Virus genome (UHGV): UHGV-0089399
DNA length: 22,830 nt
Strand: one strand, 5' to 3'
DNA from: a virus
Every line of letters begins with the position of its first letter. Position 1 is the first letter of the stretch. The notes beneath the pieces are model-generated. The model saw nothing but the letters and a program-made list of their open reading frames with translations, was not told the DNA's origin and ran no database searches. The position numbers and the translations under genes are program-made. Below, piece by piece: positions 1,832 through 8,966 of the stretch.

Positions 1832-1854
1832 CATTCATAGTGCAGGGATCAAAA

Positions 1855-1872
1855 TCATTCCCACTCAATTAT
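1855..1872 (-). other. Remnant of the guaA 3' end (I-E-W-E-stop); candidate prophage/chromosome junction (att core region)
   Basis: The minus strand reads ATT GAG TGG GAA TGA (IEWE-stop), the C-terminus of GMP synthase as I recall it. It lies where convergent guaA is expected next to yfgI, but the reading frame closes after 5 codons and no guaA body follows. Confidence 0.4.
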
Positions 1873-3781: not shown

Positions 3782-3944
3782 TTTTTTTGTACATATCGAA
3801 CCTCTTCACTTACAGGTCACCAAACACAATAAACCATATATGTTTAACCATCAGGTATTCTGAAATAACTATCAATTCATTGGTTTTTGATGACAATATT
3901 CATAAACAACCATAAATGTAAGGATGTTTATTAGTTGCCAAAAT

Positions 3945-6551
3945 TTATTTCCTGCAAACTCCAGATGATGTTAATCCATCAAAAATAACCTGCACTCTGG
4001 CAATAACAACATCAACTCCAGAAGTCGTTTCACTTGCATAACCAAGTTTTATTTTAGATACAATATCCTGAGTAAGTTCAGATATTTCAGTTTCTGCAAT
4101 GTTACCAGAGGCCATGTGATTATCGTATGCCATAGAATGAATTCCATTATTGACATCGATTGAACTAGTATGTTTGTGAAAAATAGATGGGTTTACCTGA
4201 AACGAATTTGAACCGATAAGATCAGAAGATACTCCATTCATCACTGCAGTACAGCGTGGAATATTATTATCGGTTATTGTCATATGCAGACGGTTACCAG
4301 TTAACCCCTCACCAAGTGTGACATAATACGCCAATTCTCCACCTGCATATTGTTTCCCCTCAACAATAACAGTAATCCCTCTTAATTTCTGATTAGCTAG
4401 CAAAAACTTATTACTGTCTATATAGCATTTATTTGCGGAACCAAAAACAGCCCCTTCTAAAATATCTGATGAATAGGAATAAATAAGGTCACCAGAAACA
4501 AAGGAAAGAATATCAGATACGTTTCCTTTTTTAGATAAGTTGGGAGAATAGCTATTAACTATTTCATATTGTCCTGTGATAAAATCAAGGTAAACGCCAT
4601 CAGTTTTCATCTCTTTAAAGAAAATGCTATTAAAGCATCCATCAAGAACCGGTGGATATATTCTAGAGCTTGCATAAGCTGTTGGGTGATTCTTATTATT
4701 ACCACTACCAGGCGAATAAACATCTTCGTTAGTCATTGACTTTTTAAGCTTAACAGGAATCATCGGCTGCATATCAATTTTGCAGTTCCCTGAACCACCG
4801 ATGCGAGGATAAAATAAACCACCAAACCTTACAATATTACTACTGAATAGTATTTCGTTATCGTTAAGTGTTATCTCAACGAAGTTTCCAATAAGTTTAA
4901 ATTCAACTGAAAACAAACCAAGTGGAGCAGATAATTTAACAATATTGCGCATAAAAACACCTACAGTCCCTGTTGATGCAGTATAGTGTGTGGTTTCAAA
5001 GGCAGAGCCTGTATATTTCAAGTTAATGAAATTATTATGGTATGAAGACAATTGGAATTGAATCCCAGAACTAAGGATTTCAATATCTACAAATTGAATC
5101 CTTACGGAGTAAGAATATGATAAATCTTCATATTCATAAGGCAATGTAACATCTTTTGAAATAGTTGCCCTCACATAATTACCAGAAACCACATCAACCC
5201 CATCACGTACTGCATTAAAGTAACGATTAAAATCAATAAGCCCAGCGCCAACATACTGCGCATATGAACGAGTCCATCCTGCCATTGCGTTTCGTCCATT
5301 CTGAGCTTCTAAACTGCTAAATTCAGAGTCACTTGTGGTACTTGATGGGAGGATATTTGTACAAAAAACAATTTCAGGCATTGAAGTAATATCATTCAGT
5401 TCAGCCATCAATTTAAAAAAAGTTTTCTGCGGGAAGTTACCAACATCCCAACCATCTCCGTCATTCATGCCAAAAGCAATAATAACAACATCAGGGTTAA
5501 TATCACGAATGTAATCAATCCAGCGTCTGTTCGTGTCTGAATACCATGGGTACTGTGAGTTATAAGAAGTAATTGCTGGTGTATCTTTTCCAAGGTCATA
5601 GTACCTCATTCCACCAATTGCTCTGTTAAATAAAGTAGAACTTGGGAATTTCTCTTGCAAAACTCTCTTAAGATGAGCGGCAAAAATGCTTGATCGATCC
5701 ACTGTGCTTATATTATATGGGGCACTTAAGCTGTCACCAACTAACACTATTTTTGAGTTAGGCCTTGATAATCTCTCAAGTGTTTTAGATGTGACTAAAC
5801 TGCAGGAATTAATGAACTGAGTACTATTTAGCGTCTGTTCAAGTGTATCACCAAATCTGGTACCAACGTATGATGATCCGTTGACACTTGCTAGCTTAAG
5901 GCATAAATCAGCAGTATCTGTAATTGAAAAAATAGGAACAGGACGTCCTAAACTGTCATACCCCTGAATTGAGTTTGCCCTAGAAGATGCTGATGCCATT
6001 TCGCTTACTATCTCAGGGAAGCGGAGTGTTTTAGATATGTTGCTGTTAATAACTCCTTTGATAGATGAGTCTGTATATTTCTTCGTGGAAGCGTCCTGAG
6101 GAAATAATGGATCATCAAGGTTACGAATACGATTGCCGAGTGCATCGTAGTAAGTGGCACTAAATGATGGTTTACGAAGAGCCAGCCGAGCCATGCTTTT
6201 GACTAACTGGATCAGCATCGTTAGCTTATCAAAAGCATCCTCATGCACTTCCGCAAAGAACTTACCCTGATTGCGCAGATCAGTTTCCTGTGTAACCGGT
6301 AGCTCTCGTGATATAGAAATCTTATAGCCATTGGCCAACGCCTTCGACAATATTACATTTCCACCATTGTATCCTCCGGCCCCGGTAACTATATAATCAG
6401 TATCAAGAGTCAGTACGGTGATATTTTCATGAATATCAACAACCTGCACAATCAAATCAGATTTATTGAAAACCCTAAAGGCATACGGAAACGATGTCGT
6501 AACGCCGTTACCGGTGTATTCGTTGTGGTCAACTTCGGTTGAGACCGTCAT
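3945..6551 (-). CDS. Tail fiber/tailspike with T7 gp17-like N-terminal anchor and SGNH/GDSL hydrolase (esterase-like) domain
   Basis: 868 aa. N-terminus (EYTGNGVTTSFPYAFRVF...LTLDTDYIV) resembles the conserved T7 tail-fiber N-terminal domain. Central GDS block (VLVGDSLSAPY), a conserved Gly block and a GxND block (VVIIAFGMNDG) are typical of SGNH hydrolases. GGAG ribosome-binding site upstream. Confidence 0.8.
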   Translation of the reverse strand: MTVSTEVDHNEYTGNGVTTSFPYAFRVFNKSDLIVQVVDIHENITVLTLDTDYIVTGAGGYNGGNVILSKALANGYKISISRELPVTQETDLRNQGKFFAEVHEDAFDKLTMLIQLVKSMARLALRKPSFSATYYDALGNRIRNLDDPLFPQDASTKKYTDSSIKGVINSNISKTLRFPEIVSEMASASSRANSIQGYDSLGRPVPIFSITDTADLCLKLASVNGSSYVGTRFGDTLEQTLNSTQFINSCSLVTSKTLERLSRPNSKIVLVGDSLSAPYNISTVDRSSIFAAHLKRVLQEKFPSSTLFNRAIGGMRYYDLGKDTPAITSYNSQYPWYSDTNRRWIDYIRDINPDVVIIAFGMNDGDGWDVGNFPQKTFFKLMAELNDITSMPEIVFCTNILPSSTTSDSEFSSLEAQNGRNAMAGWTRSYAQYVGAGLIDFNRYFNAVRDGVDVVSGNYVRATISKDVTLPYEYEDLSYSYSVRIQFVDIEILSSGIQFQLSSYHNNFINLKYTGSAFETTHYTASTGTVGVFMRNIVKLSAPLGLFSVEFKLIGNFVEITLNDNEILFSSNIVRFGGLFYPRIGGSGNCKIDMQPMIPVKLKKSMTNEDVYSPGSGNNKNHPTAYASSRIYPPVLDGCFNSIFFKEMKTDGVYLDFITGQYEIVNSYSPNLSKKGNVSDILSFVSGDLIYSYSSDILEGAVFGSANKCYIDSNKFLLANQKLRGITVIVEGKQYAGGELAYYVTLGEGLTGNRLHMTITDNNIPRCTAVMNGVSSDLIGSNSFQVNPSIFHKHTSSIDVNNGIHSMAYDNHMASGNIAETEISELTQDIVSKIKLGYASETTSGVDVVIARVQVIFDGLTSSGVCRK

Positions 6552-6654
6552 GTTAAATCTCCAGATAGTCGCAGCACCCGTTGCGCCGCATATCTGGTTA
6601 TTCTATTACCTGAAAAACCATATATGTATAGAAAGACTATAAATACCAATAGAT

Positions 6655-7164: not shown

Positions 7165-7318
7165 ATGTGTAAAGCGCACCTATTCTATGGTGGGCTGTGT
7201 GGGGGCACCGAAAGGTGCGCCGGGTTCCTTTGTAGCCGGTAAGACCAACTCTGCACAGTTCACCACCATCTGATTGGTCTCAGCGGTGGTGATTAACCTA
7301 ACTACAAAGGTGATCGCC

Positions 7319-8011
7319 ATGAATACCAAACCTTCCATCTTTTCCTTTGAGTCATCCTGCCAGATCCGTATGTTCATGATTGACGGAGAACCTTGGTTTG
7401 TCACCAAAGATGTGTGCAATGCTTTGAATATTGATGTTACACAAGCGAGAAAACTTGATAAAAAAGGCTGGAACAAAAAGGGGCTGTATTCAATACAGAC
7501 CCCTGGTGGAATACAAGAACTATCCATCGTTTCAGAATCAGGTCTCTACATCCTTATTCTGCGTTGCAAAGAGGCAATGACTGAGGGAACGAGAGCATTC
7601 AGATTTCTTGAATGGGTTACAGGCGAGGTTCTTCCTCAGATCCGCCGCACCGGAAGTTACATTAAAAACTCGCTACCGCAGGAAGAACGCATAAAGATGG
7701 TTGCCGACCAGGTAGCCAACGCCACGGCGTCAGCAGTAATGCAGGCGATGAAGATAGAGAACAAAACCTACAACGCCCCGCTGAAGCCCGGCTACCGCAG
7801 CCTGATTCATTCCCCGTCTGGTGTTCTCGGCCTGACGGAGAACTCACTGCTGATGAATCTGCTGAACCAGTTACAGGAAGACGGGCACGACGTATCGGGC
7901 GCGGCGGCGGAGCTGACCACCATGTTCTGCTACATCGTCGGTGTGAGCAAATGCCTGCGTGATATCCAGACGCACGCGGAGTACATCAACGACAAAGCAG
8001 GGTTCTTCTGA
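7319..8011 (+). CDS. Bro-N domain protein (phage antirepressor-like)
   Basis: N-terminal region (FSFESSCQIRMFMIDGEPWFVTKDVCNALN...ESGLYILILRCKEAMTEGTRAFRFLEWVTGEVLPQIRRTGSY) matches the Bro-N/KilA-N-type domain pattern. AGGTGA ribosome-binding site upstream of the ATG at 7319; the track ORF begins earlier at a non-ATG codon. Confidence 0.8.
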   Translation: MNTKPSIFSFESSCQIRMFMIDGEPWFVTKDVCNALNIDVTQARKLDKKGWNKKGLYSIQTPGGIQELSIVSESGLYILILRCKEAMTEGTRAFRFLEWVTGEVLPQIRRTGSYIKNSLPQEERIKMVADQVANATASAVMQAMKIENKTYNAPLKPGYRSLIHSPSGVLGLTENSLLMNLLNQLQEDGHDVSGAAAELTTMFCYIVGVSKCLRDIQTHAEYINDKAGFF

Positions 8012-8140: not shown

Positions 8141-8467
8141 ATGACAAAACTTGGATTCGTGATGAGAGGTCCGGTAAGAAGCGGAACTCATGCAAAGCGT
8201 AGCAAGAGTCGTATTTTTACTGGTAAGGTTGTAGCACGTAAATCAGCTATTGGCTCGTTCAATAGTGAAAATGCGGCATTGCGCCATATTTTTATCAGCA
8301 CAAAGCCAAGAGCATCCGCTGATGTGCATACAATGACTATTCCTATCACAAAGAATATAAAGCGGATAAAAAAGCTCTCATCTGCAGAATCAAAAGAGAT
8401 ATCTTTCCGCCAGCTTAACTCATTAGAAACGCATATGAAGGAAGAGGAATTCGATGTTTTTGAGTGA
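8141..8467 (+). CDS. Hypothetical basic protein (108 aa), first gene of a coupled pair
   Basis: GGAG ribosome-binding site 8 nt upstream. Lys/Arg-rich N-terminus. The 3' end overlaps the next gene by 14 nt. AT-rich relative to flanking DNA. No motif I recognise. Confidence 0.5.
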   Translation: MTKLGFVMRGPVRSGTHAKRSKSRIFTGKVVARKSAIGSFNSENAALRHIFISTKPRASADVHTMTIPITKNIKRIKKLSSAESKEISFRQLNSLETHMKEEEFDVFE

Positions 8468-8966
8468 GTATAGCGGGAAGGTTATACCTACTGGTGAGTT
8501 TAAAACTGATGACTTTCTGATTTCGCTAAAAGATGCTTTTAAACAACACTGGCGTCATGGTCATCATCCTGATCTGGGAAAAGATACTCTTTTTGAAAGA
8601 CCAGACGAAGTATTAGGTTTCCATCTCAGAAAGGTTCATGTCAATATTGGTGAATATGCATCATATTCATACTCATGTACTGAACAGTGTTGGGATGAGT
8701 GGTCATATGGATTGATTGATGAACAAGGAAATTACAGGCCAAAACCAACCAGTAACGCATATCTCATATATGCAGTCAATGAAATAAGAGATGCAGCCTT
8801 ACTAGCTTATTGGGACCCGCCCGCACACACCAAAGCTAACGCAAAAGTTTGGATGGATTCCGTATTGAATTTCACAAAATTATTTCATGAACGAACGAAT
8901 ACAGCTCCACTTAGTAGAAATGTTTATCCGTGGGATTATTCGTACAAATCCAAAAAGCCTGCATAG
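8454..8966 (+). CDS. Hypothetical protein (170 aa), second gene of a coupled pair
   Basis: GAGG ribosome-binding site inside the upstream gene; start overlaps the upstream stop region. Contains a His-rich stretch (WRHGHHPD). No recognisable family. Confidence 0.5.
   Translation: MFLSEYSGKVIPTGEFKTDDFLISLKDAFKQHWRHGHHPDLGKDTLFERPDEVLGFHLRKVHVNIGEYASYSYSCTEQCWDEWSYGLIDEQGNYRPKPTSNAYLIYAVNEIRDAALLAYWDPPAHTKANAKVWMDSVLNFTKLFHERTNTAPLSRNVYPWDYSYKSKKPA

Follow-up and report, generated by a model that had tools for sequence, protein, structure and literature searches.

Esterase-type tailspikes are an under-studied alternative to depolymerases against bacterial surface glycans, and recent work suggests that they are common in temperate phages. 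Deacetylases have been reported in coliphage G7C (gp63.1), Pectobacterium phage PP99 and Acinetobacter phage Aristophanes (gp41) (PMC7693777, PMC11058221), the 'petal' of epsilon15 gp20 has been reported as an esterase (bioRxiv 10.64898/2026.07.31.742079), and two SGNH receptor-binding proteins of Klebsiella prophages, where SGNH proteins are reported to be common, hydrolysed p-nitrophenyl acetate (PMC13123978). Here, we describe a tailspike gene of the UHGV virus genome UHGV-0089399, of which a stretch of 22,830 nt, referred to as the window, was analysed. A single intact open reading frame (ORF) on the minus strand, at exactly the coordinates given in an original prediction made from the DNA letters (3945-6551), encodes 868 residues plus the stop codon from an ATG start. 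The encoded spike is likely to combine a tail-docked arm with an exchanged module that, by analogy with characterised spikes, would deacetylate a surface polysaccharide and leave its backbone uncut. Its carrier is a temperate podovirus, present as an intact Uetakevirus (phiV10/epsilon15-type) prophage in phylogroup-D E. coli. The original prediction is in the main upheld by the computational analysis. Mosaic spikes whose receptor module is an esterase are already known, and the spike adds a fresh example of this kind without introducing a new principle; it leaves current concepts unchanged and its gene was already annotated as an SGNH hydrolase. The split SGNH architecture described below and the presence of an esterase-only spike on an epsilon15-type anchor are of moderate interest.

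Among the described systems, the tailspikes of phiV10 and epsilon15 share with the window spike the genome position and the N-terminal particle-binding region, but they carry a trimeric right-handed beta-helix glycanase body that the window spike lacks. Epsilon15 gp20 also bears an SGNH esterase, the petal, as a C-terminal appendage, with an insertion between blocks II and III (bioRxiv 10.64898/2026.07.31.742079). Homology of our module to the petal was rejected because hhalign was negative and no profile similarity was detected, and the likeness is at the fold level only. G7C gp63.1 (PDB 4QNL), in turn, belongs to a virulent N4-like phage and is docked on gp66 through an N-terminal domain of the TSP1/gp66 type (PF18668). 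The SGNH domain of gp63.1 is uninterrupted and has a classical DTTH block V near residue 470, whereas in the window spike block V is displaced by an insert of about 160 residues and the Asp is missing. BLASTP against gp63.1 returned nothing, hhalign gave a probability of 5%, and a profile built from homologues of the spike matches 4qnl solely via the PF18668 domain, which the window protein does not contain. On the negative BLASTP and hhalign results, the idea that the tailspike is a gp63.1 orthologue was dropped; the likeness to the G7C spike put forward in the original prediction is best understood as an analogy in fold and architecture, with undetectable sequence homology.

The design of a gp17-type adaptor followed by an esterase is common to the window spike and to several T7-like spikes, namely those of Pectobacterium phages Q19, PP47 and PP81 and those of the E. 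coli Kayfunavirus BDX03P1 and of P0018. The carriers of these T7-like spikes differ from our prophage in being virulent Autographiviridae, with an N-terminus that scores above the PF03906 cut-off and an extra PF18668 domain. P0018 and BDX03P1 contain a true homologue of the module at the gp17 locus (40-41% identity over 98% of the module), while the Pectobacterium spikes are described as G7C-like (PMC7693777) and not as part of this lineage. The Klebsiella prophage SGNH receptor-binding proteins, set alongside by description, resemble the window spike in being of the esterase type, encoded by temperate phages and devoid of a beta-helix, but they differ in host and in anchors (gp11/gp12-type). 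Finally, CEX (6HFZ) and Ape1 (8GLD/4K3U), with 14-16% sequence identity, are cellular enzymes and not virion proteins.

The spike gene and the exchanged segment are delimited as follows:

3945..6551, minus strand: complete tailspike (receptor-binding protein) ORF, RefSeq WP_021523201.1, named 'SGNH/GDSL hydrolase family protein'; phrog_17220.
6075..6551, minus strand: anchor, residues 1-159, an epsilon15/phiV10-type particle-binding domain with the T7 gp17 N-terminal fold.
5817..6074, minus strand: neck or second knob, residues 160-245, recognised by protein-level likeness only.
3848..6074: swapped low-GC cassette, in place of the phiV10 tailspike C-terminus and the oac acetyltransferase.

Nucleotide homology to phiV10 and PAS61 breaks off on the tail side at window position 6075 (codon 159) and restarts at 3847, past the stop codon, within the spacer that lies upstream of the holin genes. 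The 2,227 nt lying between both breakpoints (3848-6074) have a GC content of 36.1%. The lowest-GC segments of this length in the whole window all overlap the cassette, and the 314 segments of 2,227 nt outside the gene average 49.6% (standard deviation 2.5, minimum 43.8%). For the whole tailspike gene, GC content is 37.8% and GC content at third codon positions (GC3) 29.9%, for residues 231-868 the values are 36.2% and 26.8%, and structural genes range from 49 to 56%. The AT-richness that had been noticed against structural genes of about 50% GC is thus far beyond local variation, and the composition is clearly non-uniform. In one detail the original prediction was inaccurate, since the 60-nt stretch 4381-4440, counted at about 35% GC, measures 28.3%. 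Its proposal of a horizontally swapped module agrees with the sharp breakpoints at 6075 and 3847 and with the recurrence of the module on unrelated N-termini.

Is a low GC content a property of this esterase family? This explanation was rejected because in a further Uetakevirus prophage (P0016) the esterase spike, which is 42% identical, reaches 46% GC. Moreover, the corresponding cassettes of phiV10 (beta-helix spike body and C-terminus, 42% GC; oac O-antigen acetyltransferase, 31%) and PAS61 (spike body, 40%; acetylase, 38%) are also low in GC, and low GC is therefore general to this exchangeable position. In phiV10 and PAS61 an O-antigen acetyltransferase or acetylase gene lies between the spike and the holin genes (phiV10 locus L003, 3085-4101; PAS61 locus L004, 1924-3780). 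The cassette of the window prophage, in contrast to that of phiV10, carries no oac, and only a 163-nt spacer (3782-3944) is found at that place. The P0016 prophage (locus L011) has no acetyltransferase by its spike either, but a 103-aa membrane-like ORF; this pattern of esterase-type Uetakevirus prophages comprises two cases only. From around residue 160, recombination has replaced the beta-helix glycanase of the relatives with a foreign AT-rich cassette. In other words, an epsilon15/phiV10-type phage has given up a whole glycanase, and with respect to phiV10 also the acetyltransferase; the cassette received in exchange is esterase-only, and its breakpoints are clean. The superinfection exclusion that phiV10 bases on oac may have been displaced by the incoming cassette.

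On the N-terminal side, residues 1-231 share 66% identity with the tail fibre of phiV10, with no similarity past residue 231, and a conserved PQDAxTKxY motif closes the adaptor just before nucleotide homology to phiV10-like phages stops. PHROG tail families cover the protein from residue 1 to about 246 (phrog_1640, residues 1-246, E=6e-121), and the N-terminus of the Dpo31/Carin-1 fibre in the PDB matches residues 1-165 (E=5e-24). The neck (residues 160-245) is similar, at the protein level only, to phiV10 (until residue 231) and to the capsule-depolymerase tailspikes 9m4c/9m4d. The tailspike also keeps the syntenic Uetakevirus position, with tail genes on one side and the lysis cassette on the other. 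With respect to T7, a BLASTP search against gp17 was not significant, and direct sequence homology between both anchors was discarded because BLASTP and hhalign against the single T7 sequence gave nothing usable. The Pfam family PF03906 (Phage_T7_tail) scored 14.7 bits with the whole tailspike and 19.1 bits with residues 1-243, under its 25.2-bit cut-off, and was matched by 25 of the 30 homologues of residues 1-243 (best E=1e-9). An AlphaFold2 model of this region has an overall predicted local distance difference test score (pLDDT) of 61.8 and is confident for residues 6-85 only. When this model was used as the Foldseek query, the top 22 matches were all podovirus fibre adaptors in tail complexes; 8ck1 was matched at 1.9e-11 and the T7 gp17 N-terminal chains 7ey9 and 7boz at E~1e-4 with a probability of 1.0. 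The relationship to T7 gp17 therefore becomes visible only when the whole family is scanned with the Pfam model or when folds are compared. The T7-type anchor of the original prediction holds in this sense, at the fold or superfamily level, whereas at the sequence level the anchor is of the epsilon15/phiV10 type. By analogy with the relatives, residues 1-159 and the neck of about 70 residues would be the part by which the spike, as a trimer, is fixed to the tail.

The module that follows is organised in the segments listed below, where conservation refers to an alignment of the window protein with 30 homologues of residues 227-868 (31 sequences in total; homologues 25-46% identical in the alignment, mostly across 93-98% of the query):

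5202..5753, minus strand: first part of the SGNH fold, residues 267-450, with blocks I to III.
5730-5738, minus strand: block I, GDS, residues 272-274, motif VLVGDS; Ser274 conserved in 31 of 31 sequences.
5610-5621, minus strand: block II, AIGG, residues 311-314; Gly314 conserved in 31 of 31.
5460-5471, minus strand: block III, GMND, residues 361-364; Asn363 conserved in 31 of 31.
4719..5201, minus strand: inserted beta-sandwich (ConA/LamG/CBM-like), residues 451-611, just before block V.
4617..4718, minus strand: return of the SGNH fold and closing helix, residues 612-645.
4680-4691, minus strand: block V, NHPT, residues 621-624; His622, the putative catalytic His, is conserved in 29 of the 29 sequences extending to this position.
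3948..4616, minus strand: C-terminal beta-sandwich (ConA/LamG-like), residues 646-868, with no conserved acidic residues.

The Pfam domain PF13472 (Lipase_GDSL_2) matches residues 271-447 (E=2.4e-9; 38.4 bits against a gathering cut-off of 32.9 bits). The AlphaFold2 model of the module (pLDDT 83.4; predicted template modelling score 0.80) displays an SGNH fold of three layers, alpha/beta/alpha, together with two beta-sandwiches. Both results agree with the SGNH hydrolase supposed in the original prediction, and the GDS and GxND motifs mentioned there correspond to blocks I and III. The His of block V lies about 165 residues downstream of its canonical position, because the beta-sandwich of about 160 residues is inserted before block V; in the canonical arrangement, and in G7C gp63.1, blocks III and V are spaced within about 100 residues. 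When the insert was deleted from the family profile and PDB sequences were searched, the best match was the GDSL enzyme 3p94 (E=1.4e-4). This alignment ends at the splice point, where 3p94 has DGVHPT, and it supports the placement of the insertion, the His itself being unaligned. As a separate observation, the residue 14 positions before His622, within an LTDxDIY motif, is Asp in 29 of the 30 homologues and Asn in the window protein (residues 608-622, 4686-4730).

Judging from these motifs and from the model, the cassette probably encodes an SGNH carbohydrate esterase, with Ser274 as the nucleophile, Gly314 and Asn363 forming the oxyanion hole and His622 as the general base. In the mechanism that we propose, the two beta-sandwiches would bind to a polysaccharide of the cell surface, either O-antigen or a capsule-type glycan, while the Ser-His SGNH site would hydrolyse its O-acetyl esters and leave the glycan backbone intact. 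Deacetylation, or the binding of the acetylated glycan, would then position the virion for irreversible adsorption, as has been demonstrated by experiment for G7C gp63.1. Among structural matches of known function, carbohydrate acetylesterases come out best, namely CEX, the peptidoglycan O-acetylesterase Ape1 and acetyl-xylan esterases. This makes it improbable that the enzyme acts on an ester other than O-acetyl, such as the acyl chains of lipid A or phospholipids, in the manner of a GDSL lipase, or some other substituent, to aid membrane penetration. The same alternative is at odds with the folds of carbohydrate-binding type that border the enzyme and with its distal, receptor-binding position on the spike. 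In addition, phage SGNH spikes with a known substrate are all glycan deacetylases, the other characterised ones having been assayed on a model ester only (PMC7693777, PMC11058221, PMC13123978, bioRxiv 10.64898/2026.07.31.742079).

Could the module cleave the backbone after all? One of the beta-sandwiches might be a cryptic GH16-like jelly-roll glycanase, which would make the spike a depolymerase and an esterase at the same time, as in the dual-function epsilon15 gp20. No Asp or Glu is conserved in either beta-sandwich across the 31-sequence alignment, which argues against a hidden glycanase; the better-scoring matches of the beta-sandwiches are non-catalytic lectin or CBM domains, and the module model gave no beta-helix matches. 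We thus regard a second, depolymerising activity as very improbable.

Several observations weigh against the deacetylase reading. The Asp of the classical DxxH triad (His-3) is Asn in the window protein, and among the homologues it is Gly in 23, Asp in 5 and Lys in 1. In consequence, catalysis would require a Ser-His dyad or an acid provided from elsewhere. The segment around His622 was modelled with moderate confidence (pLDDT ~68), and we found no enzymatic or structural experiment on the tailspike or its sequence lineage. The lack of the triad Asp in the window protein and most homologues, together with the two ConA/LamG/CBM40-like domains of the module, would also suit a pure adhesin that binds through two lectin-like beta-sandwiches, with the SGNH domain dead or irrelevant and kept as a scaffold only. 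However, the Ser, Gly, Asn and His of the four catalytic blocks are invariant among homologues that are just 25-47% identical, and such invariance would scarcely be expected unless catalysis were under selection. The DxxH Asp is not universal in the SGNH superfamily, and SGNH enzymes with a Ser-His dyad are known. A purely adhesive spike is therefore an unlikely alternative, though the least unlikely of those that deny O-deacetylation by the module.

The hosts provide further points of the same kind. O102 wzy was confirmed in 17 of the 30 listed carriers, and the named carrier strains presumably represent the multidrug-resistant O102:H6 lineage ST405. In the O102 gene cluster no acyltransferase was found, the only unannotated element being a single ORF without a Pfam match. 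Another carrier, NZ_AP022222.1, contains a spike allele that is 99.6% identical and has, in place of O102, an O15 O-antigen cluster (12566-23251) with ISAs1 elements by galF. Because this allele occurs in O15 as well as in O102 strains, the host serogroup does not point to the receptor, and the prophage type is not confined to one serogroup. Reading the receptor from the host serotype was consequently rejected, both for the O15 carrier and because the association is confounded by descent: we assume that the carriers may be related phylogroup-D lineages, and shared ancestry and O-antigen switching may confound the association with serogroup. The spike may instead target a serogroup-independent acetylated glycan (capsule, colanic acid or enterobacterial common antigen) and not the O-antigen, which would fit the near-identical allele in O102 and O15 hosts. 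For the carrier lineage, the spike is a candidate determinant of specificity that could serve in typing, in the engineering of phages or enzymes and in probing the role of surface acetylation in these strains.

How widespread is the module? The C-terminal module of about 640 residues is found at 28-47% identity on unrelated N-termini, including genuine T7 tail, TSP1/gp66-N and tail-collar domains. The full three-domain form is present at the gp17 locus of T7-like genomes of about 39 kb with genuine T7-type adaptors (P0018 and Kayfunavirus BDX03P1). Tail-collar fibres, one of them in Aeromonas media, carry it too, and it also occurs behind TSP1/gp66-type N-domains and in the 149-kb phage anhysbys. 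N4-like Pectobacterium phages have the SGNH-plus-insert unit in common with it, at 27% identity. When 1.84 billion cluster representatives were searched exhaustively with HMMER, 492 relatives were identified at E<=1e-3, 44 of them at E<=1e-30. Around 10 of the 492 span all three domains, and many others match approximately residues 35-413 of the query, which corresponds to the split SGNH unit on other C-termini. The same cassette moves between very different phage types, and the split SGNH unit appears to be exchanged among temperate epsilon15-like phages, T7-like phages, tail-collar fibres and large-genome phages. A broader view, which we put forward as speculative and hold to be rather doubtful, is that this unit, with a lectin-like insert before the catalytic His and no triad Asp, defines a large lineage of phage receptor-binding esterases, and that in this prophage it addresses a serogroup-independent target and has displaced the oac function. 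Within this lineage of about 490 clusters at 50% identity, we found neither a solved structure nor a member characterised by experiment.

The prophage that carries the spike is about 40 kb long and complete-looking, and it is inserted at the 3' end of guaA, between guaA and yfgI. Its genes run from the integrase and the early genes through those for terminase, portal, capsid, tail and internal virion proteins to the spike and a lysis cassette with holins, a GH19 endolysin and a spanin. Bases 1-1852 of the window are host DNA from the yfgG/yfgH/yfgI side, and the end of the prophage is marked by the following element:

1853..1869: 17-bp att core AATCATTCCCACTCAAT (attR), a repeat of the guaA 3' end.

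A second copy of AATCATTCCCACTCAAT is located about 40 kb away at the 3' end of guaA (locus L010, 20543-20559), integration at this site duplicating the last codons of guaA. A terminator-like hairpin, AAAACCCTCTGTAGTAACAGAGGGTTTT, lies immediately outside the prophage, at about 1801-1828 of the window. The structural genes are about 98% identical to those of phiV10, PAS61, phiv142-3 and other Uetakeviruses, and the tail and lysis genes in the window show 96-98% identity to phiV10-like phages.

Might the spike be a decaying remnant of a cryptic prophage that is no longer part of any virion? The gene is known from chromosomes only, and no record of a 50,697-record phage collection contains it in full. 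Nevertheless, 37 of 5,426 complete E. coli genomes carry the gene with at least 99.6% identity, its ORF is intact, and the prophage appears complete. Excision is moreover implied by a sequenced attP junction of a near-identical phage in the record of phage BP9 (PP488543.1, 5608-12320), where the 3' end of the spike gene is followed without a break by the lysis genes, the att core, and then the integrase and early genes. This fragment holds the last 320 nt of the tailspike gene with 100% identity. The junction corresponds to attP because the lysis-integrase order forms only after excision, in the circular form, and so a phage near-identical to the prophage is, from this sequence, apparently inducible. 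The remnant explanation is accordingly one to which we give very little credence. BP9 itself is an unrelated 138-kb Vequintavirus, and its prophage-type fragment adjoins an IS2 gene. The record suggests a chimeric assembly or DNA captured from an induced Uetakevirus of the propagation host.

Regarding the gene itself, a Shine-Dalgarno sequence was recognised by direct reading of the sequence:

6559..6562, minus strand: GGAG, starting 11 nt upstream of the spike ATG.

A scan for promoters and terminators around the tailspike gene gave nothing beyond chance. The NCBIfam search of the protein yielded no match, and in PHROGs the single full-length match was the identical sequence, in phrog_17220, a family of unknown function.

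Other elements of the prophage deserve mention. Upstream of the spike gene and divergent from it, a BRO-family (anti-repressor-like) gene and small ORFs occupy 7274-8011 on the plus strand, with 83-89% identity to phiV10/PAS61, below the 98% of the tail genes. A YafO-family type II toxin gene is encoded at 8454-8966, also on the plus strand, and is overlapped by an upstream 108-aa ORF (8141-8467). This region (8141-8966), with the tail genes to one side and the spike to the other, is a further AT-rich island of the prophage (38-40% GC, GC3 30-36%). The pair has the look of a toxin-antitoxin moron that was acquired, and the phiV10 map does not show it. Lastly, outside the window, the prophage bears a tRNA-Arg gene between the terminase and the portal genes, just upstream of the latter (locus L001, 337-413).

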